From: Candidatus Omnitrophota bacterium | Lineage (GTDB): Bacteria; Omnitrophota; Gorgyraeia; Zapsychrales; Zapsychraceae | Length of the DNA: 64,000 nucleotides | Assembly: GCA_021108075.1 (NCBI GenBank) | Contig: JAIORP010000168.1 | Span: 2,649-66,648 of the forward strand | Reading direction: 5' to 3' | Shown: positions 4,313 through 33,464 of the stretch, piece after piece | How the letters are laid out: each line of letters begins with the position of its first letter | Position numbering within the stretch: position 1 is the stretch's first letter | Made by a program: the position numbers and the translations under genes | The notes under the pieces: model-generated | The model's database searches: none | Seen by the model: only the letters and a program-made list of their open reading frames with translations | Told to the model about the DNA's origin: nothing

Positions 4313-5053
4313 ATGTATACATTGAAAACCAAATCAAGCATCACAACCCTTGTTTTATTGTCGTTCCTGATCGCATTACCTAACATTGTTTCTGCGGCTG
4401 AAGGCTGGAAAGGTGATATTGGGGTCGGGTACAATCAATCCAACGGCAACACGGAGAAATCATCTTTGAGCGTGGCCGGTCACGTCAAAAGAATTTTTGA
4501 GCACTCCGATTTCATGCTGAAGGGTGACATCTACATGTCTACGACAGACGAACGCTTAGATGATCAAAAATGGTCGGGATTAGCATCATCGAATTTTGAC
4601 ATCGATGATGCCGGCAAGTGGTTTACATCCTTTGGTGTCTTAATCGACCACGACCGTTTTGCTGATATTGATGTCCGCATCACACCATCGGCAGGTATCG
4701 GTTATTGGTTTTTAGACGAAGATGATATCAAATTAAACGTTGAAGGCGCGCTCGGTTATGAATCCACCAGTTACCGTAGCGGGATCCCGGATGAGGACGG
4801 CGTAGTCGCGCTCGGTAAAGTCTTCTTTGAAAAACAAATTTTTGAAAAAGCCAGGATCGCAGAACACATAACTGTTATTCCTTCTCTTGAAGGCGGCGGT
4901 TTCCGCGTTAAATCTGAGACCGAGTTTACGAATCCTTTGCGTGATGATTTAGACCTCAGCGTTAAATATGTCGTTGACCACAACAGCGAACCTGCTGCGG
5001 GTAAAAAGAAAACAGACACACGGATCGTAACAGGCGTCAAATACTCGTTCTGA
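4313..5053 (+). CDS. Outer-membrane beta-barrel protein of the DUF481 (YdiY-like) family
   Basis: 246 aa. It has a cleavable signal peptide (LLSFLIALPNIVSA-AEG). Alternating amphipathic beta-strand pattern, C-terminal residues YSF (a terminal aromatic), and length are typical of DUF481 proteins. Confidence 0.65.
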   Translation: MYTLKTKSSITTLVLLSFLIALPNIVSAAEGWKGDIGVGYNQSNGNTEKSSLSVAGHVKRIFEHSDFMLKGDIYMSTTDERLDDQKWSGLASSNFDIDDAGKWFTSFGVLIDHDRFADIDVRITPSAGIGYWFLDEDDIKLNVEGALGYESTSYRSGIPDEDGVVALGKVFFEKQIFEKARIAEHITVIPSLEGGGFRVKSETEFTNPLRDDLDLSVKYVVDHNSEPAAGKKKTDTRIVTGVKYSF

Positions 5054-5078: not shown

Positions 5079-8000
5079 CTATTTCAAACTTAATATCTTC
5101 GGCAATTGATTATTATCCGGTTCATCTCGTTCTAACCCGATCAACGGCAAAACACTATTCAGAGGAAAAACATTAATGATGACCGGCGAGAAACCGTCGA
5201 TAGGCCCGGCGCTCATAATCTCCTGTATGCGTTTCTGGTCAAATTCAATGGTGATCGCATTGCCTGTGCTTTCAAAATCAATCTCATTAAAATCAATACC
5301 ACCAAGGGAATCATCTGTCAATTGAGCCAAATCTGTTGTCAGTTCTCCACCCCGCAGTTCTGCTTCGGCTTTAGAAACCTGGAGATCAATGATGTCATCA
5401 ATCTCCGCTTGATAATTATTTAAGCGCTGAATGAATCCCTCTTGATCCCTGAGTTCGCCCAGATAACCATTTGAAAAATTACTCCCGTAGCGGGCATCAA
5501 GATCCCTGAAGACTTCATCCAACATCCCTTGCCGTTGGGCATTGGTCAGCCGTGTCAAATCGAAAAATTGCATATAGGACCGTAACCGGGCTGTTTTATA
5601 CACAGACGAAGCCGAATAAACCTGGGCATTGTATTTTGCGGCTAATGCTGAACCGATCATCCCGCCCCAACGGACCGAATCGCCCCAATCGCCGCTGATG
5701 ATAAAAGGTTTGCCATATAGTTTGGAAACTTTAGCCATAAACCAGGTCACTTCAAACAAACGTGGTTGCGGTTCATCAAATAAATGACTATAACGGCTGT
5801 CAAACCTCGAAACATCTGGAAAGTCATTCTTAAACAGAGAATTCAACATGTCGTTCGTCCCGATAGCGATAAAATCTGATTTCTCGACCATCTCTTCATA
5901 ATGCTCGAGCTGGCCCACTTCCTCAACATAAAAACCGATCTTAACAGTATCAAATAGCTGCATCAATTTCCTGATAAAATCCTTCTGCCCTCGATTGAAC
6001 ACCGCCAATTCACCCTGTTTTTGAGATAATGCGTCCCTCGTGTTAGCGAGTGCCGTTTGCTCATCTGCTGACAATTCATCCTGCCCCTCAAAATCAGCAA
6101 TTCTTTGTTCGAGGACGGTAACATCACCCCCTCGCTTTCTTTGCTCTTCAGTAAGGATATCGTCAGCCGCTTTGAGTTTAGCCTCCACGATCATATTCAA
6201 AACGTCATCAACCGTCATAACACCTTTGATATTGCGCATATTCGGAAACGTAACGCCCAATCGTTTATTATCCGCGTGATGATACGCCTTAAATAAAGCG
6301 CGTAATTGTCGTTGACCATATTCATAAAATGGGCGTTGCCCGTTTTCATCCATATAGAAATAAAAAGAAACACCATTAAAGTCCCGCAGGATCGTCTTTT
6401 GGAGTTGATCCCGCTTTTCTTTGCTCTGGTCGCGCTCTATCCTGTCGAGGTATTGCTCCAGAATGATGGGTATTTTCTCACCGGCCACATCGTCCAAACG
6501 GGGCATCCATAAGCCACGCACATCACTCGCTTCGGTCTCACTAAAGATAGACGCATTTAAATAATCGGTAAATTGCTTTACCATTTGCCCCTCTTCGCTC
6601 CAGAGTTTGTTGTTATAAGGATTGCTGAATAACAATTCGAGGCGATGCAGGCCAACTCCTGACGCCGCCACTTTTGCCATGCCTCTTTCGATATCGGATT
6701 CCGCCTTGGCACCAATACTCACCAAACTGTGATAATGCTGGCCGCCTACTTCAAACGGTTTTGTCGCGGCAGAGAAAAAATATTCCTGTTTGCGATCCAG
6801 GTCCTCTCTTGTTTGATAGGCTTTCAAGCGCGTAGGAAGTTTGGGACGAACAGTGACGTCCCCAACACCTTTTGAAGAACCCTGAACAATAACAAAATCA
6901 CCTTCTTTGACATTAGCCGCATTAATCTCATTCACGCCCGAGACGGAGAGCGGAAACTGATTAATCGCATGAGGAGAGCGGCCCTGTTCAACAAAAGCAA
7001 CGATACGCCCATAACGCTGATTCAATGATCCGACCTCATTCGGTGTCAAAACGTCAATAGCCGGATCCACAAAGACAACCACCGCGTCTTCTTCTAATTT
7101 TTCGGCATCATCATCGGCTAAATTCTGAGAAAAAAGCATGACAAAATCAAAAATATTCTCAATCAATTGACTTTGAGCAACTTGATCATCCAGGCGCGGA
7201 ACATTCAACAGATCTTTCGCCTGTCCATATAAAGTCTCATCATGATATATCGCCAGGAAGTCCGCGACGCTACTTTCTGTATCCAAGCCTGTCGTCTGGA
7301 TATGCTCCTTTACAAAGGAAAAAAATCCATCCAGAAAGGCCTTTAAGGTTTCATTCCGGTTAATTAATACGGTGACAGCCGCGTCAGAAAGTTCTGGTGC
7401 TTTTAACAATATTTCGTAATCCGGGTCAAATAGTTTATTTTGACTTTTGAGTCTTTTGCGTATGAATTCGAGCATGAAAAGATACCGTGTCTTCTCAAAA
7501 GCTGAATTGAAACGGCGAACTTCCAAATTCTTTTTACTCTTCTGTATTTCTAAAGGATCAGCATAGGAGGTCACATAAGATTGGCTGTCCAACCGCCCTT
7601 TAACAAAAGTAAAAGATTGATAATTCTCAGCAATCGCCTCGATGTTTCTGTTCCAATTCCCCGAGTCTCTCATCATGGTAAAAAACTGCTGCATTTTCTC
7701 CTCTGTTCGCTGAAGGACATCATGGGCCACCAAATCTTCTCCGGCATCATCGATCTGCTTTAAAGGTTTACCTAAAAAATCTATCATAAAAAATGTCTCT
7801 TGGGTTCCAGCGATACCTTGATCATCATCAATTTCGACATTCAATACAGCCAGACGCTTTTCAATCATTTCCATCCTGTGGCGTGTTCTTGTGATGAGTT
7901 TGTTGTCGCGTGCTTCAGCGGTCTTGGCGAGTTCATCCTGGAGCAGTTGCTGGTCCAATAAATACTCACGGACCAGTTCCCGGTATTCATGGACTTTTAA

Positions 8001-10022
8001 CATCGCGAACGGATGTGTCAAAATCGTGGCCCAGGAACTGCGCAACAGCTTAAAACGTTCATGGCTGTTTTTATCTTCTCCAAACAGCGCGTCACTGTCC
8101 ATAAAGTGGGAGCGTTCCATGACAAGCGCGGGGATATAATCATCCAACAGTTCTTTTTTCAGTTCGTTGATAAAATCATCATCAATCTGTTGCTCGCCCA
8201 ATACTAAATTCTCACGAAAATCCACATTCTCTAAACGCACCAGCTCGTGCACAATACGATAACCAAAAACCATACGCTTTTCGATTTGGTCGACAAGATA
8301 GGACCGGACAACTTGAATCGTGTTTGCGTATTCAGGATGGTCTTTCAATTTTGATACACGTTCAAAAACCTTCTCAAACGTTTCGACCACATGCTGTTGT
8401 TCATGTTCGACTTTTTGATCACGGATCGATTCATTATCTATCGGGGCGACAAGCGGGTAGGTGTACTGCACATCTTCGCGTTCAAAAAATGTGGCCCGCC
8501 CCATTCCGATGCTTTCTAAACCGTTTGATTTACCTGGCAATTTCGTTTGGTCCTGACCAAGATATTCATTACCCGCGATCAAATAACCAGGGGTGTTAAT
8601 GAGAAAAGTCTCGATCACCTCGACATCAACCGTCATGCCTTCCGCTTTTAATCTTTCCACCAGGGCTGCCGCCATTTCAGATGAAGAAATAACTTGATCT
8701 CTCTTCCAACGCTTTTCTTTCCGGACAGACTCAAACAGGTGATCAATCAGTTCTATTTCCCGCAAAGGCAAAGACGCGGTATCCTCGGTTAACATCGCGG
8801 CATCACCTTCCTTGCGCGGGTAAGCGCCTATTTCAAGCACAAACCGGCGTCCCACGGCACTCCGGTCAACCAGCATCGCGTCATCAATCGATTCAAACTC
8901 AACATTCATCAATTGGGTGATCCCGCCGGAGAAATATTTACGCGGCACAACTTCTTGGGCGTACTGATCATACTCTTCTTTGACATAATCGAAAACACCG
9001 ATATTATAAGCCTTAATGTACTGCTCATAAATACGGTCTTTCAATTCCGGATCATCCGCATCGACGCCTAAAATTTTATTTTGATCGACATAAAGTTGTG
9101 ACAATAAACTGTTCGTAACAGTCACTTTGTACCACTTCGCTAATATCAATGAATGGAAAATCTGGCGCAACACTGCAAAATTCTGACCGGTATTGATTTC
9201 TTTCTCGATTTCCGGAATGACAAGATCGCGGACAATGGACGCCGATAATTGACTGATACCCTGCTCTTCTGCTTGGTCCGTCCTGTCCGTTCCCAAGCGA
9301 TTGTTGTCGGCCTCTTGTTGCCACGCGATATAGTCTTCATCCAGCATCACCTTTAAACGGGTCCGCACAATAAAAACACTCAAATCTTTTTCAAAGATTT
9401 GCGCCTGGTCAGGAAGGATCCAAACTTTGTTGAACATATTGATCGGCAACTCCGTCAAACCGTATTTTTCATAGGCCAGTTGATAGACCTTCTGCCAGAA
9501 TTCACGGCCGAGATCTTTCTCCGGATAAATTAAAGAAGAAGTGAGTTGTTTAAGTTGATAATCCTGGGCGAGCAGGTCTTGCCCCAACTCGGTTTTTCCT
9601 AAAACCGGGGTAATGATGCGGTCACTTTCATAGGGCGATAAATTCACCCACAAATCATCTTTTGGAATGGTCAAAGCAGACATAAAGTAATGCACGAGTT
9701 TCTGCGATTCCTCTTTGATTTGCCCGGCATCCAGTTGGTTGTAGCCGCTGTCCACGATAAAGTCAAAACGCAAAGGGTCATCTTTATGAAGCGTGATCCC
9801 TGACAACAAAACCGGAACAAAATCTTGACTCGGCCCGATCATTTCACCGGGTGGAACTAAGTTTCGAATAATCTCGTTTCCAATAGCAACATCCGCTGGA
9901 ATAAATAATGGAAAAATAAGAGTTAATACGTACGAAAATACGACAGAAACGCGCAGTATTTTTTTCATGATATGGTTATCCTTCTTGTAGGGATTAAAAA
10001 ATAGACATAACAATATTAACAT
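5079..10022 (-). CDS. Giant (1647 aa) protein with an N-terminal signal anchor and an N-terminal region of about 1000 aa of unknown function. The C-terminal part carries a PEP-utilizing-enzyme phosphohistidine-like domain and a TIM-barrel domain (Enzyme I/PpsA/PPDK superfamily).
   Basis: The N-terminus is MKKILRVSVVFSYVLTLIFPLFIPA. The C-terminal third contains EQGRSPHAINQFPLSVSGV (compare EGGRTSHAAIIARELGIPAVVG). It contains GVGLHRLELLF (compare GIGLFRTEFLF). It contains FIAIGTNDMLNSLF (compare FSIGTNDLTQY). It contains PFIISGDWGD (compare the CGE motif, with Cys replaced by Ser). Confidence 0.6.
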   Translation of the reverse strand: MLILLCLFFNPYKKDNHIMKKILRVSVVFSYVLTLIFPLFIPADVAIGNEIIRNLVPPGEMIGPSQDFVPVLLSGITLHKDDPLRFDFIVDSGYNQLDAGQIKEESQKLVHYFMSALTIPKDDLWVNLSPYESDRIITPVLGKTELGQDLLAQDYQLKQLTSSLIYPEKDLGREFWQKVYQLAYEKYGLTELPINMFNKVWILPDQAQIFEKDLSVFIVRTRLKVMLDEDYIAWQQEADNNRLGTDRTDQAEEQGISQLSASIVRDLVIPEIEKEINTGQNFAVLRQIFHSLILAKWYKVTVTNSLLSQLYVDQNKILGVDADDPELKDRIYEQYIKAYNIGVFDYVKEEYDQYAQEVVPRKYFSGGITQLMNVEFESIDDAMLVDRSAVGRRFVLEIGAYPRKEGDAAMLTEDTASLPLREIELIDHLFESVRKEKRWKRDQVISSSEMAAALVERLKAEGMTVDVEVIETFLINTPGYLIAGNEYLGQDQTKLPGKSNGLESIGMGRATFFEREDVQYTYPLVAPIDNESIRDQKVEHEQQHVVETFEKVFERVSKLKDHPEYANTIQVVRSYLVDQIEKRMVFGYRIVHELVRLENVDFRENLVLGEQQIDDDFINELKKELLDDYIPALVMERSHFMDSDALFGEDKNSHERFKLLRSSWATILTHPFAMLKVHEYRELVREYLLDQQLLQDELAKTAEARDNKLITRTRHRMEMIEKRLAVLNVEIDDDQGIAGTQETFFMIDFLGKPLKQIDDAGEDLVAHDVLQRTEEKMQQFFTMMRDSGNWNRNIEAIAENYQSFTFVKGRLDSQSYVTSYADPLEIQKSKKNLEVRRFNSAFEKTRYLFMLEFIRKRLKSQNKLFDPDYEILLKAPELSDAAVTVLINRNETLKAFLDGFFSFVKEHIQTTGLDTESSVADFLAIYHDETLYGQAKDLLNVPRLDDQVAQSQLIENIFDFVMLFSQNLADDDAEKLEEDAVVVFVDPAIDVLTPNEVGSLNQRYGRIVAFVEQGRSPHAINQFPLSVSGVNEINAANVKEGDFVIVQGSSKGVGDVTVRPKLPTRLKAYQTREDLDRKQEYFFSAATKPFEVGGQHYHSLVSIGAKAESDIERGMAKVAASGVGLHRLELLFSNPYNNKLWSEEGQMVKQFTDYLNASIFSETEASDVRGLWMPRLDDVAGEKIPIILEQYLDRIERDQSKEKRDQLQKTILRDFNGVSFYFYMDENGQRPFYEYGQRQLRALFKAYHHADNKRLGVTFPNMRNIKGVMTVDDVLNMIVEAKLKAADDILTEEQRKRGGDVTVLEQRIADFEGQDELSADEQTALANTRDALSQKQGELAVFNRGQKDFIRKLMQLFDTVKIGFYVEEVGQLEHYEEMVEKSDFIAIGTNDMLNSLFKNDFPDVSRFDSRYSHLFDEPQPRLFEVTWFMAKVSKLYGKPFIISGDWGDSVRWGGMIGSALAAKYNAQVYSASSVYKTARLRSYMQFFDLTRLTNAQRQGMLDEVFRDLDARYGSNFSNGYLGELRDQEGFIQRLNNYQAEIDDIIDLQVSKAEAELRGGELTTDLAQLTDDSLGGIDFNEIDFESTGNAITIEFDQKRIQEIMSAGPIDGFSPVIINVFPLNSVLPLIGLERDEPDNNQLPKILSLK

Positions 10023-10281: not shown

Positions 10282-10896
10282 TTAGGGATTGTCGATCCGC
10301 AAGGGGGAGGAAATCTTGCCTTCAAGATCCATCAATATTTGCTCAAGCCCCTGGTTGTAGCCATGGATAATAGCACCGATGCTTTTTTCATGGATCGGGA
10401 CATGTGCAATAAAAATTTGAGAAAACACATCTTCCGGAAAGATAAAATTCGATTGCAACGAAAAACGAATTTCAATGACAACTTCGTAAGCCGAGGGATC
10501 GGAAAAATCCGCATAAAAATGCTTAACCTGACCGGACAAAATATAATCGTATTTCTTTAAAAATTTCGCTCCAATCACCTCTTTAACAGACGCTGAAGCG
10601 GCGAACCAATCAAGGACAATGTCTGTGACCATATAATGCAACGGGCGGTCCCAACGGTTATAGTAATCGGTTTCAAACGATTGATTTTGCATCTGATAAA
10701 CAAACTGCTTGCGGTCATATGGAGAGACAATCAGGAGTTGTTTAACTTTTAAACGGATCGGCGCTTGATCCGACCCGACATCCTGTACTCGGTCCACCCC
10801 CAGGGAATACGATTGAATATCCAGATAATCCTGTGAAACCGTAATGCAACCACACAAACAGATTGAAAGGAATAAAAATAATAATTTCATTTTCAT
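10282..10896 (-). CDS. Lipoprotein, ABC-type transport auxiliary component (PqiC/YmbA-like, DUF330-type)
   Basis: 204 aa. It has a lipoprotein signal with a lipobox-like LCGC. It overlaps the upstream MCE gene by 4 bp. Position after the MCE gene in the operon is typical. Confidence 0.55.
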   Translation of the reverse strand: MKMKLLFLFLSICLCGCITVSQDYLDIQSYSLGVDRVQDVGSDQAPIRLKVKQLLIVSPYDRKQFVYQMQNQSFETDYYNRWDRPLHYMVTDIVLDWFAASASVKEVIGAKFLKKYDYILSGQVKHFYADFSDPSAYEVVIEIRFSLQSNFIFPEDVFSQIFIAHVPIHEKSIGAIIHGYNQGLEQILMDLEGKISSPLRIDNP

Positions 10897-11747
10897 CGCG
10901 GAACATCCAATTTCCGGGGTGGTTTACCGAACAGGACCCGTGACGGGTTCTGGTTTAATTCTAAGCTGAAATCTTTCAATTCTTCAGAAACGACACGCAG
11001 ATTTTCAATCAATTCACTGATGCTGTCCTTTTCAACAGTCATCAGATTATTCACGTGATTTAACGAGGCCTTGAGGTCCTCTGTTATACTAGGAAAATCA
11101 TCTGAAGCGACTTTAAAGTTATCCAGGATCGGCATGAGTTTTTCTGAGGCATGGTTCAAATTCTGGAGGAGCGGAAGAAATTCGTTTTCGAATTCCCGGG
11201 AAAACGTCGTCACCGCCTGCTCAATACGAATGATGGGACTCGGCACGGATGGGATATAAAAAGTTTCCGGAGTCCAGGTAATCAATAACGGAGGATTTTC
11301 TTTGGGATCCACATAATCAATCTCGAGATACAATAAGCCTGTGATACCTAAATAACCGATCTTGATCCGTAACCCTTCATTGCTGATCAGACGGCTCAAT
11401 GTGCTTCCCAGGTCCTGTTCATCTTTCAACCGGCCGAACAATCGGGCGTCGAGATCTATCTCAACCATAACGTATTGATTGTATAAATCATTCGCTTGTT
11501 CATTGTCACCAAAATCATACTTATCGGTCACAACCGTAATGTTCTTGACTTTTCCGACGGACACCCCCCGGTACTTGACAAAAGAACCCACATCTAATCC
11601 CTGCACGCTCTCGTCAAAATACGTTTCCAATTGTATCGACTTGTCAAATAGTTCGCCTGCGCCAAAAATGACGATCGCAACAACCATCAGCACCGTTCCG
11701 ATGACAAGGAACAACCCAATACGGAAATAATGATTTTTCTCTCTCAA
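10893..11747 (-). CDS. mlaD: MCE-family substrate-binding protein (MlaD/PqiB-like)
   Basis: 284 aa. It has an N-terminal TM anchor followed by an MCE domain (YFDESVQGLDVGSFVKYRGVSVGKV) and a C-terminal coiled-coil region. Confidence 0.8.
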   Translation of the reverse strand: MREKNHYFRIGLFLVIGTVLMVVAIVIFGAGELFDKSIQLETYFDESVQGLDVGSFVKYRGVSVGKVKNITVVTDKYDFGDNEQANDLYNQYVMVEIDLDARLFGRLKDEQDLGSTLSRLISNEGLRIKIGYLGITGLLYLEIDYVDPKENPPLLITWTPETFYIPSVPSPIIRIEQAVTTFSREFENEFLPLLQNLNHASEKLMPILDNFKVASDDFPSITEDLKASLNHVNNLMTVEKDSISELIENLRVVSEELKDFSLELNQNPSRVLFGKPPRKLDVPR

Positions 11748-11765
11748 AATTAAACAATCCTTTTT

Positions 11766-12530
11766 CTAGATGGAAACCTGACGGTTAAAAAAATCATGAA
11801 CAAATTTATTCTTCGAGCGTTGTTTTAACGTTTGCGGTTTTCCCTGGGCAATAATGCTTTTCGTTTCTTTGTCCAAAAAAATCACGCGGTCAGCGATCGT
11901 AAAAATGCTATCTAACTCATGCGTCACGATAACAAACGTGATGCCTAAAATACGGGATAATCGAATAATCAATTGATCCAGTTCAGCTGACGTAATCGGA
12001 TCAAGTCCCGCAGAAGGTTCATCCAAAAAGAGTATCTTGGGATCCAAGGCCATGGCCCGCGCTATTGCGGCCCGTTTCTGCATCCCTCCCGAAATCTCAG
12101 ACGGCAAATACTGTTCAAATCCGTCTAAACTGACTTGCTTTAATTTTAGCGCGGCTATTCTTTCACAGGCAGACTTGGGTAAGTCCGTGAACTCTTCTAA
12201 AGGGAGTATAATATTTTCGCTCAAGGTCATCGAGCCAAACAAGGCTCCGCTTTGGTACATCACACCAATCTTATTTAAAATTCTCTGTAACACATCCCCC
12301 TGAGCCAGGGTGATATCATCGCCATCGATAATAATCTGCCCGGTCTTCACTTGATATAATCCGATTAGATGCTTCAAAAGCGTACTTTTACCGCAACCAG
12401 ACCCCCCCAGGATGATAAAAATTTCCCCACGTATAATTTCAAAAGATACATTCTCTAAAATGATGTTATCCCCATATCCCATGGTCAACTGGCTTGTTTG
12501 TATCATAATATCATTTTGTTTCGACATCAA
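11766..12530 (-). CDS. mlaF: ABC transporter ATP-binding protein (MlaF-like)
   Basis: Walker A GGSGCGKST. ABC signature LSGGMQKRAAIARA. Walker B ILFLDEPSAGLD. 254 aa. It abuts the permease gene at 12530/12531. Confidence 0.9.
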   Translation of the reverse strand: MMSKQNDIMIQTSQLTMGYGDNIILENVSFEIIRGEIFIILGGSGCGKSTLLKHLIGLYQVKTGQIIIDGDDITLAQGDVLQRILNKIGVMYQSGALFGSMTLSENIILPLEEFTDLPKSACERIAALKLKQVSLDGFEQYLPSEISGGMQKRAAIARAMALDPKILFLDEPSAGLDPITSAELDQLIIRLSRILGITFVIVTHELDSIFTIADRVIFLDKETKSIIAQGKPQTLKQRSKNKFVHDFFNRQVSI

Positions 12531-13682
12531 TCAAATCCCTAAAAAATAATAAACAATTGAAAAAGCACCTTCAGCCAAAATAATCAGGATCAGAGAACTC
12601 ACAACAGCTCTGGTCGTCGACTGACCAACCGCGCTCGCCCCACTGCCCGTTTCAAGCCCACGATAGCAGCCTATCGAGGCGATTATGAAACCAAACACAA
12701 AGGACTTAATAAATCCGCCCAAGAAATCATTGAGATGGACCGCCCCTAAAATCTGATTGACATAGGTAATCAGGGGATAACCGAAAGAACGGACAACAAC
12801 CGCCCCTCCCAGCAAACCAGCAAAATCAGCAAAAATCGTCAGAACAGGCGCCAGAATGATCATTCCCAAAATTCTGTTTGTGACTAAAAATTTCAAAGGA
12901 TTAAGCCCCATTGTCTTCAAGGCATTAATCTCTTCATTCACCTTCATGGTGCCGATCTCTGCCGCAAACGCTGAACCGGTCCGCCCGGCCAGGACGATCG
13001 CCGTCATCAAAGGGCCCAAAACCCGTAAAATTGACAGCGCGACCAAATTCGCGACAAAAATGTCCGCGCCAAACTGCCGCATCGGAATGGCCGCCTGAAA
13101 AGCCATAATCAAACCCATTAAAAAATTGATCATCAGAATGATAAACAGCGCCTGCACGCCCCCCTCTTCCACGACCCGCCAGACATCTGTCCATCTGAAA
13201 TACCGCAAAGGATCACGCAAAGCCCTCAAGAAATGCACGGACAATTCCCCCAGGAAAACAATTTGCTGATAAATATGTTCGATAAAAAAATAAAAACTTT
13301 CGCCGACACCTTCAAAAATATTAACTCGTTCTTTCGGTCGAGGGGCGGGGCTGAAGGCCGGGTCTTCCAAGAAAACATCCAATAATTTTTGAAAATCTTC
13401 TTTGAGGTTGATGACATTGCAGTGCTGGCCTTTGAGGTGTTGCTGGCGATTAATTTCGGTTAATAACCCGATACCCGCGCCATCGCAATAACTCACGTCC
13501 CGGGCATCAATAATGATTAAAGGTTTTTGCTCCTGTTGAACACGTTCTAGGACTTCATTCCATAAAAGACCGATAGATTGCGCGCTCAAGTGCCCTTTCA
13601 AACGAAGATACAACTGATCTTCCGCAGGTATTTGAACATCATAAATAAAAGGTGGTATGGCTTGTTGAGTTCGTAAAGTCAT
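12531..13682 (-). CDS. mlaE: MlaE-family ABC permease with an N-terminal fused STAS (MlaB-like) domain
   Basis: 383 aa. The N-terminal approximately 110 aa resemble a STAS/anti-sigma-antagonist fold (LIIIDARDVSYCDGAGIGLL). The remainder is a typical MlaE permease with five TM helices. Confidence 0.8.
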   Translation of the reverse strand: MTLRTQQAIPPFIYDVQIPAEDQLYLRLKGHLSAQSIGLLWNEVLERVQQEQKPLIIIDARDVSYCDGAGIGLLTEINRQQHLKGQHCNVINLKEDFQKLLDVFLEDPAFSPAPRPKERVNIFEGVGESFYFFIEHIYQQIVFLGELSVHFLRALRDPLRYFRWTDVWRVVEEGGVQALFIILMINFLMGLIMAFQAAIPMRQFGADIFVANLVALSILRVLGPLMTAIVLAGRTGSAFAAEIGTMKVNEEINALKTMGLNPLKFLVTNRILGMIILAPVLTIFADFAGLLGGAVVVRSFGYPLITYVNQILGAVHLNDFLGGFIKSFVFGFIIASIGCYRGLETGSGASAVGQSTTRAVVSSLILIILAEGAFSIVYYFLGI

Positions 13683-17683: not shown

Positions 17684-20491
17684 TTATCCGTCTTCCTCTG
17701 ATAGCAATATAGCCACAGGAAAAACTTTCAATACGTGTCCGACGTTAAGATCCGGCATAATGTCGAAAGTCTTACGTGTGATCGCGTTGAAACCCCGACC
17801 GACAAGTTCCTGTGGACATTCGATAAATGTTTCTCCCCAGACATTCTCACCGGTAGGACTCTCATCTGTTTTGACGATTTCGGTAAAAAAACGAGGGGCA
17901 ATAACTAATACAACTGTATTTTTGCGCTTACGATAAAAGGCAACCAGGCAGTCTTCATGCGTCCCTTTTACTGTCAATGGATGATAGGTTCCGTCTAGAA
18001 AGAGCTCCTCCTGTTGCCTCCGGCATTGTAGGATCTGATGGATTAAAAATAATTTGATCCGTCCGTCTTGACGACTCTGCCACAAGTCGCATAATAACAG
18101 GTCCATGTCATTCCGGGACCTGACATCAATGTCATCCAAACACAACAGACGTTTTTTATAATCTACCGGACGTCGGTTATCGGGATCGACAAAACTAAAA
18201 TCCCATAAGTCTGTTCCCTGATAAAAATCCGGCACGCCGACACCCGTCATTTTCAACAAAGTCTGCGATAAGGAATTAAGAATACCATAGTGCGCGATAT
18301 GTTTCTGAAAAGGAATAAACTCATTCAGAAATTTATTATCGGTATCCTGATTCAAAATCTTATCAATAAAAGCCAAACAGGTTTCTTCATAAACCGTGTC
18401 CGGTTTGATCCACGCGGTATGAACCTTCGCCTCGCGAATCGCTTTAATCGTGTAATCCTTCAGGCGCTGTTTAAACGAATCAAGCTCGGATAGATCAAAC
18501 GGAAAGGCCCCCAGCATGGATTGATAAATAAAATACTCATCATTGGCATCAGGAATATAAGCCCCGTCTATTTTTCTTTTCCTGGCGCGGTTCATTTTGC
18601 TCCAGGTCTTTAATGCATTTTTCCAATCCTCAGGAATTTCCGACAGGACATTGATCCGTGCCCGAGCATCTTCTCCGCGCTTTGTATCGTGCGTTGCTGT
18701 TGCATTGAGCGTGTGCGGAAATTGAGCGAATCTTTGCTGATTAAAATGATGAAAATCATGGCGTGTGATGCCAAAACAACCGGGATCTCCTCCAACTTCA
18801 TTTAAAGAAATCAGTTTGTTGTAGGAGTAAAAAAAGGTGTCTTCAAATCCTTTAGCCATAATCGGCGAGGTGATTTGCTGAAAACGCATAATAAAATGCC
18901 AAAAATCACGTTTTTCATCCTCCCGCAGCGAATCCTCTATCTCTAACAAAAGAAATTTCTTGATAAACTTTATTTCATACTCAAGGCCCGGATGATGTTT
19001 CAACGACTTCGTGATCGCAGTCTGAATATAAACCTTCTCATGTTCATTTCTGTGCAAGGACGACAGATACGTTCGATATACGGGGAATGCCGTCAAGACC
19101 GCCACCAGAGCGCGTTTTAGCCCGAAAAGTGTGATGTCGCGTCCGTAGCGGTCCCGGCTGGCCACTTTCTTCATCAAGTAAGCAAGATTCTCAATATCTC
19201 CCGCCATATGCTTATCAATGATCAACCGTTTTGTTTGGTCAACAAGATATTCATATCGAAAATGAAGTTTTGTGAATTTATAATAAATCTTGATAAAATC
19301 CGCTTTGGACTTGGTCCGGCACAACACGCCATTAACCCTATTCATAAAATCATACCCGGTGGTACCCTGAATCGGCCAATCCGGAGGCAATTTTTCATCC
19401 CCGGCTAATATTTTCTCTGTCACGATAAACGTGTCCTTCATCGCGGCAGATAATCGCTTCAAATAAACCGTCGGGTCATACAAGCCATCAACATGATCAA
19501 TTCTTAATCCGTGAATTTTATTTTCTTGCTTAAGTTTCTTAATAAAATCATGCGTGACGTTGAAAACATTCCGTTGTTCAACGCGCAACGAGATTAAATC
19601 ATTGATGGTAAAAAACCTCCGGTAATTTAATTCCTCACTGGCGACTTTCCAAAAAGATAAACGGTAACATTGCCTGGACAATAACAAGTCAAAAAATTCA
19701 AGACCCCGGTCTTTGTCTTTCTTCCCGTTAAAAAAAAGCAAATTGTCATCAACAAAACTTTTTATCGTCGCGTTCTGATAACAATCCCACAACATCTTTT
19801 TAGCGTGTAAAACCTGGTGATTGTCACAATCCAGTTTGTCTTTGTTTAATAATGCGCTAAAAATATCAACGGCACCATAAAATTTGATATACGTCGAGTC
19901 ATATTCCCCCAGTGTTTGTTCTAAACAAGAGATGTTATTCAGCAGAACGTCTTTGTATGTATCTAAATAGAGGGGAAAACATAAATCATAGTAACGGATG
20001 AATAATCCCCCCTGGTTATAGACCACTTTAATTTCCCCATCTGATAACGCCTCGGAATAAAACTTGCCGAGAAACGGAGCCAAAACCCGCCCCTGGTAAC
20101 TTTCATACATATGGACCCAATCAATATCAAAATACTCAAAATAAAGAGAATGTTCGCGTTTTTCAAATATATCCATAAGCATATCGTTCTCTTTATGGTA
20201 GGCCATATGATTGGGAACAATATCCTGCAGCCAGAACATGCCCTGGTCCTGGACAGATTTAATAAGCGATTCAAACTCCTCATGGGTTCCTAATTGGGGG
20301 TTTATCGTTGATGGGTCGGTCACATCATAACCATGTTGGGAACCAAACCGGGCCTTCAGTATGGGCGACGCATAAATATCAGAGACACCCAATTTATGCA
20401 AGTAAGGCAAAATGGCCTCCAGGTCTTTAAACCCAAAAACAGGGGAAAACTGAATCCGATATGTTGCCCGAGGTATATGCATGTTATTCAA
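17684..20491 (-). CDS. treY: Malto-oligosyltrehalose synthase (GH13)
   Basis: 935 aa. N-terminus YRIQFSP...DIYASPILKA...GYDVTDP, then VPNHMA, is diagnostic of TreY. Confidence 0.85.
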   Translation of the reverse strand: MNNMHIPRATYRIQFSPVFGFKDLEAILPYLHKLGVSDIYASPILKARFGSQHGYDVTDPSTINPQLGTHEEFESLIKSVQDQGMFWLQDIVPNHMAYHKENDMLMDIFEKREHSLYFEYFDIDWVHMYESYQGRVLAPFLGKFYSEALSDGEIKVVYNQGGLFIRYYDLCFPLYLDTYKDVLLNNISCLEQTLGEYDSTYIKFYGAVDIFSALLNKDKLDCDNHQVLHAKKMLWDCYQNATIKSFVDDNLLFFNGKKDKDRGLEFFDLLLSRQCYRLSFWKVASEELNYRRFFTINDLISLRVEQRNVFNVTHDFIKKLKQENKIHGLRIDHVDGLYDPTVYLKRLSAAMKDTFIVTEKILAGDEKLPPDWPIQGTTGYDFMNRVNGVLCRTKSKADFIKIYYKFTKLHFRYEYLVDQTKRLIIDKHMAGDIENLAYLMKKVASRDRYGRDITLFGLKRALVAVLTAFPVYRTYLSSLHRNEHEKVYIQTAITKSLKHHPGLEYEIKFIKKFLLLEIEDSLREDEKRDFWHFIMRFQQITSPIMAKGFEDTFFYSYNKLISLNEVGGDPGCFGITRHDFHHFNQQRFAQFPHTLNATATHDTKRGEDARARINVLSEIPEDWKNALKTWSKMNRARKRKIDGAYIPDANDEYFIYQSMLGAFPFDLSELDSFKQRLKDYTIKAIREAKVHTAWIKPDTVYEETCLAFIDKILNQDTDNKFLNEFIPFQKHIAHYGILNSLSQTLLKMTGVGVPDFYQGTDLWDFSFVDPDNRRPVDYKKRLLCLDDIDVRSRNDMDLLLCDLWQSRQDGRIKLFLIHQILQCRRQQEELFLDGTYHPLTVKGTHEDCLVAFYRKRKNTVVLVIAPRFFTEIVKTDESPTGENVWGETFIECPQELVGRGFNAITRKTFDIMPDLNVGHVLKVFPVAILLSEEDG

Positions 20492-22907
20492 TCTTAATTG
20501 TTAAATGTTGTGCCAATTGTCTATACATTTTCATCCAACATCGGGCATGTTCTTCGCCCGCTTCTTCTTTCTTCCGCATGTCCGCAAGATTATTTTTGGC
20601 AACCAGGAAAAAATCATTCTGGGCCCTCCAAAAATCTATCTTTAACGATAAGGGATCTACGATGTCCAGCATAAAAACAATGTTATTCAATACCCCAGCC
20701 TCCCGGGGGTTTTGCCGCCAGTCAGCCATAAAACCATTTAAACGTTTACGGACCATAAACTCAAGCGTGATTTGATCAATTTCTAATGACCATTCTATAA
20801 CCTCTCGCACCAGTTCCTGCAAACGCTTGAAATCAATCGGATCAGCACCTAAGACACGCATGATATCCGTATTTAAAGACGCTAAAACTGTATTCGCTAA
20901 AATCTGCGGTAAGGGGATTCCCAGTTGTCGAATAACCTGGATAATCGAATAATGATGTTGGTTGATCTGTCTCAAGGAGGATTCAATATCCTCTAACGTT
21001 GTGCATAATATCTGATAAAGAATTTTCCGTTGTTCATCTTTAAATAAATGCCATAAAGAATAATGGCTATTATGAAACGTTTTCTCGATCAGGGCAATGG
21101 TCCCGGCGATATCACTTTTTTTAAAAACAGACTTGATCTCACCCGCTATTTTCTGAAAATTCATCCCCTCTTCAACCGGGATAACACCCCCGATAAAATT
21201 GTGATCACCCAGGTGCAGGGTAACAAAATAAATGGACGCCTGCGCCCCGGTAATGTTTGATTGAATCATGGCTTGCCCGCTGGCCAGACGATGTGAACCT
21301 ACGACCATTAAATCATATGATTCGCTCTGAGCGGTATAACAATAAATCGATGTGACTTTATCATATGTTTCAAATAAGGACGATATGGTGTAATGCGCAC
21401 CAACTCTGGCAAGATCAACAATCGCTGGTTTAACAAGTTGATGGTAAATATTTCTCGCATTCTCGAACTCGGCGATATTACTGGGGATCTTCTCCAACAA
21501 ATGACAAAATGTTTGGTCAAAAGGGATTGAAGAGATGGTTTCAGCCAACTGAATAACACGCGCGGCATACTGAAGAATCTGGACGGTCTCGATCCCGGAA
21601 ACTTCATCGAAAAACCATCCGCAACTTGTAAACATTAGCATGGAAAATCGCTGCATTTCTAAAAGCTGCCGGACCTTCAACCGGTCCCCTTCGGACAAAG
21701 ACATAGAAATATTCTGCGTTAAGAAATGATCAATCTTGCCGGAAGACCTGTCAAGGATCACTTCAACGTATTTATTGCGTAAAGTCCAAACATCATCGCA
21801 ATATTTCCGCATATGATCGACATAAACATTCGCCGCATTATCCCTTAACCAATCCAATGCTCCACGTAACGGGGCCCGCCATTCCTGGTTCCAATCTGGA
21901 TGCTTGCCGGAATGACAGCCGCAATTATTCCGCCAGCGCTCAATCCCGTGCTCACAACTCCAGGAAGAATGTTCAAATATCTCAACCTCAAATTCAGGGG
22001 CATGGGAATCAAGATATTCCCCATAATTCGTTATCCGTGCGAGTTTAAGGGATTTGATATGGTTAATACAGTACGCCAGCGCCATATCACCACTTGGATG
22101 ATGATGGCCATAGGTTTCTCCATCTGTCGCGATATGGACAAATTGGTCATCCTTGTCATGGCTGTATCCGCCCAGCAGACGGTTGGCAAAGTGTTCGCCG
22201 TGATAAAGCAATCCTTCAAACGCGACGCTCTGTGAAATAGGACCATCATAAAAAAATAAAACAATCTGCCGGCCAGAAAATAAACGACACAGGTACGGGC
22301 GACGGGGATTTACGCGGGAACCACTCACATCCCGCCATTTCTTATCGCCGATCTTACGGATCCTTTTAGCCTGTCGAGGGGCTAATATCGTGTAGCGTAT
22401 GCCCTGCGCGGCCATAATATCTAAAGACTCTAAATCAACAGCTGTTTCCGGCAACCACATTCCCTCTGGCGGCCGATTAAAATGATATTTGAAATCTTCA
22501 ATCCCCCACACAATTTGTGTTTCTTTATCCTCCCTCGTCGCCAAAGGAAGTATCATGTGATTATAGGCCTGTGCGATAGCTGAACCATGCCCGGAAAAAA
22601 ATTTTATCGATTCTTGATCCGCCTTGAGGATCGCATGATAAACATCCGGATCCATGCGCGACATCCAATACAGTAATGTCGGACCAAAGTTAAAGCTGAT
22701 ATGGGAATAATTGCTGACAATATCCTGGATACGTCCCTCATCTCCTAAAATACGGGCAGCCGAATTTGGGGCATAACATTCCGATGTGATCCGTTCATTC
22801 CAGTCGTGATACGGATAAGCGGAATCTTGCCGTTCAATTTCCTCCAACCAGGGATTCTCTCTGGGCGGTTGATAAAAATGGGCGTGAATACAAATATATT
22901 TATTCAT
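20484..22907 (-). CDS. Glycoside hydrolase family 57 protein with a C-terminal DUF3536-like extension. It could be a 4-alpha-glucanotransferase or branching-enzyme type.
   Basis: 807 aa. The N-terminus HAHFYQPPRENPW and the catalytic region are typical of GH57. It overlaps treY by 8 bp. Confidence 0.8.
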   Translation of the reverse strand: MNKYICIHAHFYQPPRENPWLEEIERQDSAYPYHDWNERITSECYAPNSAARILGDEGRIQDIVSNYSHISFNFGPTLLYWMSRMDPDVYHAILKADQESIKFFSGHGSAIAQAYNHMILPLATREDKETQIVWGIEDFKYHFNRPPEGMWLPETAVDLESLDIMAAQGIRYTILAPRQAKRIRKIGDKKWRDVSGSRVNPRRPYLCRLFSGRQIVLFFYDGPISQSVAFEGLLYHGEHFANRLLGGYSHDKDDQFVHIATDGETYGHHHPSGDMALAYCINHIKSLKLARITNYGEYLDSHAPEFEVEIFEHSSWSCEHGIERWRNNCGCHSGKHPDWNQEWRAPLRGALDWLRDNAANVYVDHMRKYCDDVWTLRNKYVEVILDRSSGKIDHFLTQNISMSLSEGDRLKVRQLLEMQRFSMLMFTSCGWFFDEVSGIETVQILQYAARVIQLAETISSIPFDQTFCHLLEKIPSNIAEFENARNIYHQLVKPAIVDLARVGAHYTISSLFETYDKVTSIYCYTAQSESYDLMVVGSHRLASGQAMIQSNITGAQASIYFVTLHLGDHNFIGGVIPVEEGMNFQKIAGEIKSVFKKSDIAGTIALIEKTFHNSHYSLWHLFKDEQRKILYQILCTTLEDIESSLRQINQHHYSIIQVIRQLGIPLPQILANTVLASLNTDIMRVLGADPIDFKRLQELVREVIEWSLEIDQITLEFMVRKRLNGFMADWRQNPREAGVLNNIVFMLDIVDPLSLKIDFWRAQNDFFLVAKNNLADMRKKEEAGEEHARCWMKMYRQLAQHLTIKIE

Positions 22908-24755
22908 CTATTTTTCACCTTCATAAACACAAACATGGTGTGGCTGTAGTTTGATATTATCCCCGGAGCGAATGCGGTCCACGGCCAAACAACCTGGGCC
23001 ACCCCAATCAGGGGCAGCTGAATCCAAACACTTTTTATGAGGCAACGGCAGGTGCGGGATACCTAAATTAACGGATTGAACACTGATATTCACAATAATA
23101 AAAATGGAACTCGCCTTATGCTTTCTATGCATCATTAAGACACGATCATCATTTGTTAAGAACACCTGATAATCCTCCCGGTCAAAATGCCTTAACGCCG
23201 GCTGCGATTTTCTGAGTGCGATTAATGACTGATAAAAAGACAACATCTGCGCATGTCGCCCCTCGGCGATAATATCCCACTGGATTTTCGATTGCAAGAA
23301 CACATCTTCGCTGTTAGGGTCCGGGGGCTCCACCTTCCAATGGAATGATTGAAATTCCTTCTTGCGGCCTTCGCGAACAGCCTGGACCAATTGCGGGTCA
23401 AGATGACTGATAAAATACATAAAGGGATTCTTCTGGGCAAATTCTTCTCCCATAAACAACATCGGAACATAAGGCGATAACAACATAATCGCCGCACAAC
23501 ATTTAAGGGACTCGAATGGTACCAGATGAGACAACCGTTCGCCCAACATGCGATTACCGACTTGATCATGATTTTGAATAAAAGCGATAAACTGTCGCGG
23601 AAGGATATGGCCGGAGGAGGATCCGTATTTCTTCCGTCGATGAAGTGAATAATCCCAAGAAAAAACGAATCCTTCTTTTAAGGCCTTAAGCAGTTGCGAC
23701 GGAGCACCGAAATCCTGATAATACCCGGTCCTTTCTTCTGTCATGATTGTTCGTATAGAATGATGAAAATCATCTAACCATTGCGCGTCTAATGCCAGGC
23801 CTCCTTTCTGTTTATCATCAATAATATGCGTATCATTTAAGTCGCTTTCGGCAATCAAATAAAACGATCTTTTCTGTCCGTCAATTTTCGCGCGCACACA
23901 ATCAGATAGTTCCGACAAAAAATGTCTTGCCCCGAAATCACAAATACCGTGAACCGCGTCCAGACGTAAACCGTCCAAATGAAAATATTCATACCAATAC
24001 AGCGCATTATCAATGAAAAATTGTCTCACTCCGCCGCAATCCGGGCCATCAAAGTTAATGGCGCTTCCCCAGGGTGTTTGATAGCGATCCGTAAAATACG
24101 GCCCGAAATGTCCCAGATAATTTCCCTCAGGTCCTAAGTGGTTGTAAACGACATCTAAAATCACCGACAGACCTTTGAAATGGCACGCGTTGACAAATTC
24201 TTTCATTCCAGCAGGGCCACCATAAGTGTTTTGGACGGCAAAAGGATGAACGCCATCATATCCCCAATTGCGGCCACCCGGAAATTGGGAAACCGGCATG
24301 ATTTCAACCGCGTTAATACCCAGGTCAACCAAATAATCAAGACGCTCAACAGCAGAAAAAAATGTGCCTTCTCTGGTAAATGTTCCGACATGCAATTCAT
24401 ACAGGATCATCTCGGATAATGCCACACTCTTCCAATCCCTGTCCTGCCATTGGAAGGCATGATGCTCAACAAGGGCGGAGGGCTGGTGCACACCCCGCGG
24501 CTGGAAAAAAGAAGCGGGATCCGGACATTCATGCTCTTGATTGATCACATATAAATAAAGGGTACCCGGCGATACATCCTCGACGCGAACAGACCAATAA
24601 CCCTGGTCATCCTGCTTCATGGGAATGGTCCGGCTCCGGGGATGGCATAATTTCAATTCAAGCTTTGAACAATTTGGAGCCCACACGGAAAAAAGAGACT
24701 GACCTGAGGCATAAAAAGCGCCGTTTTTCATCTTAAAATATTCCCTCCAATTCAA
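22908..24755 (-). CDS. treZ: Malto-oligosyltrehalose trehalohydrolase (GH13)
   Basis: 615 aa. It has an N-terminal CBM48-like domain and GH13 motifs (DVVYNH, GLRLDAV, FIQNHDQ). Confidence 0.85.
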   Translation of the reverse strand: MNWREYFKMKNGAFYASGQSLFSVWAPNCSKLELKLCHPRSRTIPMKQDDQGYWSVRVEDVSPGTLYLYVINQEHECPDPASFFQPRGVHQPSALVEHHAFQWQDRDWKSVALSEMILYELHVGTFTREGTFFSAVERLDYLVDLGINAVEIMPVSQFPGGRNWGYDGVHPFAVQNTYGGPAGMKEFVNACHFKGLSVILDVVYNHLGPEGNYLGHFGPYFTDRYQTPWGSAINFDGPDCGGVRQFFIDNALYWYEYFHLDGLRLDAVHGICDFGARHFLSELSDCVRAKIDGQKRSFYLIAESDLNDTHIIDDKQKGGLALDAQWLDDFHHSIRTIMTEERTGYYQDFGAPSQLLKALKEGFVFSWDYSLHRRKKYGSSSGHILPRQFIAFIQNHDQVGNRMLGERLSHLVPFESLKCCAAIMLLSPYVPMLFMGEEFAQKNPFMYFISHLDPQLVQAVREGRKKEFQSFHWKVEPPDPNSEDVFLQSKIQWDIIAEGRHAQMLSFYQSLIALRKSQPALRHFDREDYQVFLTNDDRVLMMHRKHKASSIFIIVNISVQSVNLGIPHLPLPHKKCLDSAAPDWGGPGCLAVDRIRSGDNIKLQPHHVCVYEGEK

Positions 24756-24949
24756 ATCCTTACATGTCAGCTAGGAGGCTGTCCGAAAATAGAATTTTTG
24801 TTCAGAACAAGGCGCGAGACGAGAGAAAACCACAGGCGTACATGTGTACGTTGAGGATTTTTTTGAGTTTCGCAACGCAGGACTGGACAAAAACATCATT
24901 ATCGGACAACCTCCTGGTCATAAGGATAAATGTTCATCATAAATTAACA

Positions 24950-28300: not shown

Positions 28301-28342
28301 AATTTATTTATCTCCTTCACGTCTTTTTTTACATTCTACTCT

Positions 28343-30313: not shown

Positions 30314-30407
30314 GGATCGGTTTCTCCATTCTCATTTCAAACTATTGTTATGGGCTAAAAAACGTTCATCCAAACATTTATTATGTCAGTTAAAACGGTA
30401 AATGATT

Positions 30408-30432
30408 ATACCAATTCCGTTAAATAATAATT
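30408..30432 (+). repeat. Solo terminal arm of the MITE-like element
   Basis: ATACCAATTCCGTTAAATAATAATT matches the left terminal inverted repeat only. Confidence 0.5.
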
Positions 30433-30477
30433 ATACAATACAACCCGTGATTTTAAACAACAAAACATATGCATCTC

Positions 30478-31932: not shown

Positions 31933-32096
31933 AGATTAGTTTGAACAGGATTTAACTCGCCCCGCAACAACGAAAAAAAATCAAAGGCTATCGGTCCTCG
32001 GGCAAAAAAAATTTATGGCTCGGTTTAAATGTTGTTTAACTTTTCCCGGGTGGACATTCTGAATCATCATATTCCTTTTTTAAAATATGTCTCAGA

Positions 32097-32306
32097 CTAA
32101 AAAACTGATTTCTTACCGACAATAAATCCGAGGCCAAATCCCGCCAGAAGAAATAAAACTAAAAAAATGATCCGTGACATGCTGATTTTCCAGAACAATA
32201 ATTGAAAATCAACAACCTGTGTGTTCTGCAACAACACGATGAGGACGATTCCTGCTAGAAGGCTCAAAGCGATCAATTTCATTCTGCCCATATCATCAAA
32301 ACTCAT
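32097..32306 (-). CDS. LapA-like (DUF1049) small inner-membrane protein
   Basis: 69 aa with two TM helices. It resembles YciS/LapA. The true start may be an internal Met (MKLIALS...). Confidence 0.45.
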   Translation of the reverse strand: MSFDDMGRMKLIALSLLAGIVLIVLLQNTQVVDFQLLFWKISMSRIIFLVLFLLAGFGLGFIVGKKSVF

Positions 32307-32320
32307 TGAGTTTCCCTATT

Positions 32321-33454: not shown

Positions 33455-33464
33455 GGCGCAGTCA

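Follow-up and report, generated by a model that had tools for sequence, protein, structure and literature searches.

An Enzyme-I-like module between conserved terminal domains in a cysteine-free, apparently exported protein of Omnitrophota

Results

The stretch of DNA analysed here ("the window") comprises 64,000 nucleotides of contig JAIORP010000168.1 (positions 2,649 to 66,648, forward strand) from the assembly GCA_021108075.1 of a Candidatus Omnitrophota bacterium. Its minus strand contains an open reading frame (ORF) of 1647 codons, 5079..10022, which a preliminary description made from the letters alone had singled out as a large anchored protein with a C-terminal module of the phosphoenolpyruvate (PEP)-utilizing type. 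The ORF is present in the ORF list of the window. Its product appears to consist of a signal peptide, a conserved N-terminal domain (the "head"), a divergent homologue of Enzyme I (EI) of the phosphotransferase system (PTS), and a short conserved C-terminal tail (Table 1). Residue numbers follow the 1647-aa ORF throughout.

The first ATG of the ORF is probably unused, because an AAGGA Shine-Dalgarno sequence (9979-9983) precedes only the ATG of Met19 (MKKILRV..., 9966-9968, 10 nt further 3') and because the orthologue P0002 (74 % identical) begins at the equivalent MKKF; the sequence upstream of the ATG at 10022 contains no Shine-Dalgarno sequence. The length given in the preliminary description is therefore that of the ORF, and the product probably comprises aa 19-1647, i.e., 1629 aa. 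All the motifs which that description had quoted lie at the expected positions: MKKILRVSVVFSYVLTLIFPLFIPA (aa 19-43), EQGRSPHAINQFPLSVSGV (aa 1012-1030), GVGLHRLELLF (aa 1122-1132), FIAIGTNDMLNSLF (aa 1384-1397) and ISGDWGD (aa 1442-1448).

A search with the whole protein matched more than 2900 clusters, nearly all labelled Omnitrophota. Among the 120 clusters listed, seven align along the middle region, six of them over essentially full length; the others share only aa ~20-410 (45-59 % identity) and aa ~1560-1640 (40-60 %), and their middles are unrelated. The head follows straight after the signal peptide and displays the motifs WVNLSPYE..., NKVWI.P, LPEIEKEVN and RKYFSGG. In the tail (alignment A4, motifs at aa 1574-1630), GGIDxN is followed by a short stretch of variable sequence, then by G-F-x-P-V-I-I-N-x-x-P-x-x-S-x-L-P-L-L-G-L, and the last residues are polar. 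In hydrophobicity the last part of the tail ranks second among the segments of the protein (Kyte-Doolittle value, KD, 1.59); it is not long enough, and too rich in proline, for an obvious transmembrane helix.

At least 543 loci encoding the head occur in species-representative genomes, with several paralogues per genome. Essentially all are found in Omnitrophota metagenome-assembled genomes; some of these were deposited as "uncultured Planctomycetales", and one 2.3-kb contig belongs to a Patescibacteria bin. Among 52 complete ORFs from other genomes that encode the head, 46 have the tail as well, some 10 aa ahead of the stop codon, and at least two of the six tail-less ORFs (in L005 and L080) are followed by a separate tail-bearing ORF and look like split genes. 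A tandem pair is present in L001 (4812-14926), where a 1730-aa member with another cargo and a variant tail (GGIDLN...LLDLQIKRD...) stands immediately upstream of P0004, an orthologue with the Enzyme I cargo.

Members of this "bookend" family measure 1-2.8 kaa (thousand amino acids), carry one or few cargoes, and have neither internal transmembrane helices nor a C39/S8 peptidase domain. Enzymes found in their middles are NDK, UDP-glucose pyrophosphorylase, pyruvate kinase, PFK, PGK, adenylate kinase, NUDIX, HAD and cytidine deaminase; further cargoes are methyltransferases, radical S-adenosylmethionine (SAM) proteins, GGDEF, receiver domains, Fic, and HEAT, ankyrin and TPR repeats. Head and tail gave no Pfam or NCBIfam match even at E <= 10 and no sequence match in the PDB, and neither matched the C-terminal domain (CTD) of type IX secretion (TIGR04183/TIGR04131) or the two-partner secretion (TPS) domain (PF05860) at E <= 10. 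A search with the tail only matched solely fragments of 44-139 aa at contig ends. From aa 44-440 aligned with 38 relatives (39 sequences), AlphaFold2 gave a model of mixed alpha/beta fold with a predicted local distance difference test score (pLDDT) of 70 and a predicted TM-score (pTM) of 0.73. Its top Foldseek matches were MakE, MakB and NheA, with a probability <= 0.10 and a TM-score of about 0.11; its hairpin is not hydrophobic, and a ClyA-type pore-former is not supported as an explanation for this domain. Head and tail bracket unrelated cargoes in thousands of Omnitrophota proteins, and neither fits a described family or a solved fold.

The module between the two was recognised correctly in its C-terminal part as a PEP-utilizing His-swivel and TIM barrel. 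The Pfam domain PEP-utilizers_C (PF02896) matched in two stretches, the best at aa 1352-1446; its score of 32.9 bits exceeds the gathering threshold of 22.8. Seven full-length orthologues, which are 27-43 % identical to the window protein (alignment A1), yielded a profile of aa 421-1560 that matched Enzyme I chains in the PDB (2wqd, 1.3e-10) over the His-swivel and linker and the second half of the barrel. Profile-profile comparison (hhalign) of the module with an alignment of the Enzyme I family led by E. coli PtsI gave a probability of 99.9 % (E 2.6e-31), with aa ~825-1513 collinear with residues 30-570 of E. coli EI, the whole barrel included. The N-terminal hairpin of EI (residues 1-25) matched at aa 494-520, GMGRATFFERED; this match is short and weak. 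Because it is nevertheless collinear with the alignment of EI 30-570, aa ~494-1515 may be interpreted as a single Enzyme-I-like module with helical and coiled-coil insertions. An AlphaFold2 model of aa 421-1560 is of moderate quality (pLDDT 63.7), and Foldseek finds EI (2wqd, 4.8e-10) as its best fold in the PDB.

Among 1.84 billion representatives, an exhaustive HMMER search recovered four full-length orthologues and, besides partial relatives and some shorter fragments, a further dozen or so giant proteins with an Enzyme-I-like module; ordinary PtsI proteins of ~570 aa rank next (1e-14 to 1e-5). The score for the PTS Enzyme I equivalog TIGR01417, 37.2 bits, is far under its cut-off of 341.7. 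We interpret the module as a complete but divergent homologue of PTS Enzyme I. Weak Pfam and PDB matches to TMP_4, Y_phosphatase2, NAPRTase, UbiH and sorting nexin-7 were all under thresholds and were taken as chance. The first ~1000 aa, previously left as unrecognised, fall into two separate parts, the N-terminal domain common to the family (aa 44-~420) and the N-terminal half of the Enzyme-I-like module, which is helical and several-fold enlarged. Head and tail (aa ~1570-1635) had been overlooked as conserved family parts, between which the Enzyme-I-like region appears to be one of many interchangeable cargoes.

Enzyme-I-like modules also occur in a second set of cysteine-poor giants with a signal peptide (2-4.7 kaa; P0125, P0128-P0132, P0135, P0159, P0260). 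These have a distinct conserved N-terminus (motif IQDAH), and their C-termini end in (Q/S)AA.

In the active site of the module, His1018, the counterpart of the phospho-acceptor His189, is kept in six of the seven orthologues as aligned and in all seven if a one-residue indel is allowed in P0007. Equivalents of Arg296, Glu298, Arg332, Asp335, Lys340, Glu431, Asp455 and Arg465 are invariant in the orthologues covering each position, and that of Asn454 is present in the window protein and kept in five of six (Ser in P0007). As such conservation persists among orthologues only 27-43 % identical, ligand binding and the phospho-histidine are therefore likely to be under selection. The catalytic cysteine, by contrast, is replaced, as the preliminary description had noted: Cys502 is Ser (SGD, not CGE) and Glu504 is Asp in all six orthologues that cover the site. 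Arg358 likewise lacks an equivalent; hhalign places Asn, Ser or Pro there, where a local misalignment is possible. We considered the motif GQRQLR as a candidate for the Arg358 site and dismissed it, as hhalign aligns it with EI 372-377. The canonical proton-donor chemistry thus appears altered in the window protein. Related giant proteins retain CGE, and since these relatives have kept the catalytic cysteine, either a cysteine is evidently dispensable at Ser1443 or the chemistry has shifted.

Export is suggested by the N-terminus. The signal segment is the only strongly hydrophobic stretch of the protein (KD 2.14), and none elsewhere exceeds KD 1.6. A K/R-rich n-region, a hydrophobic core of 15-20 residues and a small-x-small site (typically SYA|Q) precede the conserved domain in 115 of the 120 listed relatives. 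The segment described as a signal or transmembrane anchor has indeed all features of an export signal, but it resembles a cleavable signal peptide of the Sec type, with an AxA-type site, and not a permanent anchor. A lipoprotein or Tat signal was rejected for want of a lipobox cysteine and of a consistent twin-arginine motif.

From Met19 onwards the protein has no cysteine in 1629 aa, compared with a mean of 1.43 % in the other 34 ORFs of the window (P about 6e-11). Two envelope proteins encoded nearby, DUF481 and MlaD, likewise have none. Cysteine is absent after the signal peptide in 76 of the 120 listed relatives, and across 80 loci of other genomes the family has 62 cysteines in 145,214 residues (0.043 %, about 25-fold depleted) against 1.08 % in the 299 neighbouring ORFs (Mann-Whitney p 2e-41). 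Ordinary EI homologues have a median of five, and none has zero. The exceptions are instructive: the radical-SAM member P0050 retains exactly the three cysteines of CxxxCxxC, and the sole cysteine of P0122 (2048 aa) is residue 1641, the Enzyme I catalytic cysteine in KPFTICGEWGES. The surviving cysteines of the family thus appear to be metal-ligand or catalytic ones only. This pattern fits an oxidising extracytoplasmic site with the cargo under functional selection, and the near-absence of cysteine therefore argues for genuine export of the family proteins. The exchange of Cys502 for Ser, which had been taken as a sign of a non-canonical or non-catalytic role, is real; it is no private oddity of this protein but belongs to the family-wide cysteine purge.

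A short motif accompanies the module boundaries. In the proteins P0002-P0120 and the loci L001-L080, D-x-A-M-[LVTM]-[SGAT] occurs 1.15 times per 1000 aa of the family against 0.10 expected from composition (11-fold enriched). D-x-A-M clusters at aa 340-420, directly behind the head, in the 30 aa that precede the tail, and ahead of cargo-domain starts, e.g., of receiver domains. Before its own tail the window protein has a degenerate DLAQL where P0002 has DDAML. We rejected an embedded ribosome-binding site with internal start, as Shine-Dalgarno-like words precede 5 % of the motif methionines versus 8 % of other internal methionines and synonymous sites are at background. The motif more probably acts at the protein level, where it seems to mark module boundaries; a processing or linker signal would be speculation.

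The size of the ORF had been held to stand out, which is not the case: the window also holds ORFs of 1116 aa (a TreS-maltokinase-type fusion) and 1385 aa. The latter (38465-42622, minus strand) is a histidine kinase with multiple PAS domains, and ORFs of more than 1000 aa are not rare in the window. Directly upstream of the gene (10282-13682, minus strand) lies an Mla-like lipid-transport operon composed of a STAS-MlaE fusion, an ABC ATPase, MlaD and an auxiliary lipoprotein, separated from the gene by a 260-nt AT-rich gap with long T runs. Downstream follow a DUF481 outer-membrane protein (4313-5053, plus strand) and an MscS channel. Further away, an alpha-glucan cluster (17684-35606, minus strand) consists of a GH13 amylase-like enzyme, GH57 with DUF3536, the TreS-maltokinase-type fusion, GlgE and two CBM48-GH13 enzymes; a cardiolipin-synthase-like phospholipase D (PLD) protein and CorA are located inside it, between GlgE and the last GH13 enzyme. 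No PTS-HPr domain was detected among 20 window ORFs scanned or in the orthologue neighbourhoods. The proposed search for homologues and their surroundings recovered a few relatives with the same cargo, but no conserved neighbourhood: clustering of ORFs in 80 loci gave only housekeeping genes and an antisense shadow ORF.

Table 1. Features of the gene and its predicted product (nucleotide positions in the window; residues in ORF numbering)
Feature	Position (nt)	Strand	Residues	Remarks
Probable coding sequence	5079..9968	-	Met19 to stop codon	1629 aa; mechanical ORF reaches 10022
Sec-type signal peptide	9894..9968	-	aa 19-43	MKKILRVSVVFSYVLTLIFPLFIPA, then DVA
Family N-terminal domain (head)	8763..9893	-	aa 44-~420	conserved core aa 44-367, ending RKYFSGG
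Two D-x-A-M-L copies	8790..8885	-	aa 380-384, aa 407-411	DDAML and DAAML; N-domain/cargo boundary
Enzyme-I-like phosphotransferase cargo	5478..8543	-	aa ~494-1515	hhalign, PDB profile, Foldseek, HMMER
Putative N-terminal hairpin		-	aa ~494-520	weak collinear match to EI 1-25
Helical insertion, ~300 aa		-		ahead of EIN-alpha-like region; extra helical residues compared with EI
EIN-alpha-like helices region		-	aa ~825-975	EI 30-145 aligned
His-swivel domain		-	aa ~983-1060	part of Enzyme-I-like cargo
His1018, equivalent of phospho-acceptor His189	6969..6971	-	aa 1018	GRSPH (context QGRSPH) vs GRTSH; alignments to E. coli EI
PEP-binding TIM barrel		-	aa ~1090-1513	part of Enzyme-I-like cargo
Coiled-coil insertion in barrel, ~55 aa		-	aa ~1296-1350	extra compared with EI
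Ser1443, replacing catalytic Cys502	5694..5696	-	aa 1443	IISGDWGD vs GMCGELAGD
Family C-terminal tail	5118..5315	-	aa ~1570-1635	GGIDxN...G-F-x-P-V-I-I-N-x-x-P...L-P-L-(L/I)-G-L, short polar end

Discussion

On balance we regard it as fairly probable that the gene encodes a 1629-aa modular exported protein of Omnitrophota, in which head and tail have a shared sorting role and the Enzyme-I-like cargo acts outside the cytoplasm; its final destination and biochemical role we infer from sequence. The architecture, the Enzyme I homology, the conserved residues, the exclusion of cysteine and the phylogenetic restriction we regard as established. Sec would carry the protein across the cytoplasmic membrane, with cleavage of its signal peptide. 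Head and tail would serve as a sorting, anchoring or secretion device common to all family members, and the D-x-A-M junctions are possible processing or linker sites. The cargo itself would act in the periplasm, on the cell surface, or touching prey contents. There it would bind PEP or a close analogue and Mg2+, transfer the phosphoryl group to His1018, and pass it on to an acceptor; the latter would be bound by the enlarged helical subdomain, which stands in for the HPr-binding one. Serine in place of cysteine would be the price of an oxidising compartment, with enolate protonation of pyruvate probably slowed and not abolished.

Whether the module still transfers phosphoryl groups is the point on which a first alternative turns. 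We consider it unlikely, albeit worth weighing, that the exported Enzyme-I-like region is a pseudoenzyme or scaffold without phosphotransfer, with a ligand-binding or structural role such as that of a PEP/carboxylate sensor or a surface-coat block. The histidine and seven Mg/PEP-binding residues remain invariant down to 27 % identity, which would be unusual for a dead enzyme. In pyruvate kinase, a related TIM-barrel enzyme, the enolate is protonated by a hydroxyl residue, Thr298, and a proton relay through serine is plausible. The loss of phosphotransfer would nonetheless agree with the uniform SGD of the six covering orthologues and the Asn, Ser or Pro at Arg358, with a TIGR01417 score of 37 bits against a cut-off of 342, and with the expectation that PEP does not occur extracellularly. 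In related exported giants, for which the activity is presumably necessary, the catalytic cysteine is the only one left, so its retention was possible. Enzyme I is strongly impaired by substitutions at C502, as it is at E431 and D455 (PMC13598208).

A second alternative concerns the place of action. Omnitrophota are ubiquitous uncultured nanobacteria, which are thought to be predators or parasites. We can only tentatively entertain that the protein is an effector directed at prey, with head and tail as a new device for secretion or translocation, by which cargo reaches the interior or the surface of host or prey cells; the Enzyme-I-like cargo would drain the PEP of the prey or phosphorylate prey or partner proteins, and other members would bring kinases, NUDIX, Fic, ankyrin and HEAT. 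The cargoes of the family depend on metabolites of the cytoplasm (ATP, PEP, SAM) or belong to the classic modules of host interaction (ankyrin, Fic); the family is large, paralogous and scattered through the genomes, which resembles effector arsenals, and the junction motif could be a release site. The absence of a translocon, a chaperone or a conserved neighbour from the loci surveyed does not agree with a delivery device, nor does the lack of significant likeness of the N-domain to pore-forming or secretion domains (Foldseek to MakE and NheA, probability 0.10, TM-score 0.11). Delivery to prey is still attractive given the ankyrin and Fic cargoes and the life as predators or parasites inferred for Omnitrophota (PMC10066038).

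Very improbable is a signal-anchored enzyme that faces the cytoplasm through an uncleaved N-terminal helix and starts a PTS-like regulatory phosphorelay there: this would solve the problem of PEP supply and accord with the suspicion, voiced by the authors of the giant-protein study (10.1101/2023.11.21.568195), that extracellular calls for glycolytic domains are wrong, but the positive n-region and the small-x-small site after the hydrophobic core suggest that the bulk of the protein lies outside, cysteine exclusion is extreme and family-wide against normal cysteine contents in cytoplasmic neighbours and ordinary EI, and no HPr gene is found near the gene or its orthologues.

Several observations weigh against an exported and active Enzyme-I-like cargo with a sorting head and tail. 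In the AlphaFold2 model the His-swivel region is poor (pLDDT about 30), and of the two Pfam domains by which the preliminary description proposed to recognise the module, PEP-utilizers_C scores above its gathering cut-off but the His-swivel PF00391 gave no direct match in the protein scan. Given the importance of Cys502 in EI and the missing Arg358 equivalent, the module may be inactive or use another ligand. Neither an HPr-like partner nor a dedicated secretion gene lies near the gene, and synteny is not conserved among the orthologues. The cleavage of the signal peptide was judged by eye and from simple statistics, and the cysteine depletion could in principle stem from a cause other than an oxidising location. 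The model of the N-domain is of moderate confidence (pLDDT 70), and the roles considered for head, tail and D-x-A-M derive solely from their distribution. We know of nothing that establishes the availability of PEP outside the cytoplasm, and substrate supply is the main unexplained point. It is this unexplained supply that makes delivery to prey attractive.

A bolder extension, which we think doubtful as a whole, is that head, tail and D-x-A-M constitute an unrecognised sorting system of Omnitrophota that exports, possibly into prey, hundreds of cysteine-free "cytoplasmic" enzymes and eukaryote-like repeats, among which the Enzyme-I-like member would tap or rewire the PEP pool of the prey by histidine phosphotransfer.

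Irrespective of the destination, exported giant multi-enzyme proteins are a recognised puzzle, for which the gene offers a tractable representative of 1.6 kaa. Cysteine exclusion that spares essential cysteines is a simple signature; it would be independent evidence that the cargo is functional and located outside the cytoplasm. By their head, tail and junction motif, thousands of proteins that belong to no database family can be recognised, and these parts could help to find the sorting machinery and to catalogue exported enzymes. For enzymology, the module offers a naturally occurring Cys-to-Ser exchange in the active site of Enzyme I, with the Mg/PEP ligands kept except Arg358.

Comparison with known systems

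The closest relative of the module is PTS Enzyme I (PtsI; PF05524, PF00391 and PF02896, TIGR01417), its best PDB match by sequence and by fold. Both share the collinear region EI 30-570, the GRxxH, GxGLxRxE and RxxDxxxxK motifs, the VE and GTND metal and PEP ligands, and the equivalent of Arg465. The window module differs in being part of an exported, cysteine-free protein of 1629 aa, with Ser for Cys502, Asp for Glu504 and no Arg358, in its insertions of ~55 aa in the barrel and ~300 helical aa, and in the lack of an HPr gene nearby. The protein is an Enzyme I homologue and not a canonical PtsI, from which it departs in the equivalog score, Cys502, Arg358 and cellular context.

Sec signal peptides and a conserved terminal domain on unrelated cargoes of diderm bacteria are also known from type IX secretion cargo and two-partner secretion. 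The similarity is one of logic only: the bookend family has no CTD or TPS match, its N-domain model is alpha/beta and contains no beta-helix, and both ends are conserved together.

Cysteine exclusion in exported proteins has been described for Gram-positive bacteria without disulfide-forming machinery. Exported proteins are strongly depleted of cysteine relative to cytoplasmic ones in those bacteria as in the bookend family. Here, however, the bacteria are diderms of the Planctomycetes-Verrucomicrobia-Chlamydiae (PVC) group, the depleted proteins are homologues of cytoplasmic enzymes, and only catalytic or metal-binding cysteines are spared.

An exported PEP-utilizing module is less unprecedented than the preliminary description supposed, because giant "multi-enzyme" proteins of Omnitrophota with signal peptides or transmembrane helices have been published, in which pyruvate/PEP-dikinase-type domains lie on predicted extracellular parts (West-Roberts et al. 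2023, 10.1101/2023.11.21.568195; Nielsen & Lui 2026, 10.64898/2026.06.07.730766); the extracellular calls for such domains were doubted by the authors of the former. These giants ("Archaeovorin" and others) share with the bookend family the phylum, the N-terminal signal peptide and an outward-predicted repertoire of HEAT, NUDIX, methyltransferase, HAD, radical SAM, GGDEF, glycolytic and pyruvate/PEP-dikinase-type domains. They reach 10-147 kaa, against 1-2.8 kaa in the bookend family, which is set apart by its conserved N-domain and C-tail. Giants of this type exceed 10,000 aa and have many transmembrane helices and C39/S8 peptidase or SecA-like domains, whereas the window protein has 1629 aa, one hydrophobic segment and no such Pfam match. 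Term searches and selected sections of 10.1101/2023.11.21.568195, 10.64898/2026.06.07.730766 and PMC10066038 contained no mention of the head/tail family, the cysteine exclusion or the junction motif. The protein is best described as a mid-sized, cysteine-free, head-and-tail-bracketed variant of the known exported multi-enzyme proteins of Omnitrophota, with a divergent Enzyme I as its cargo.

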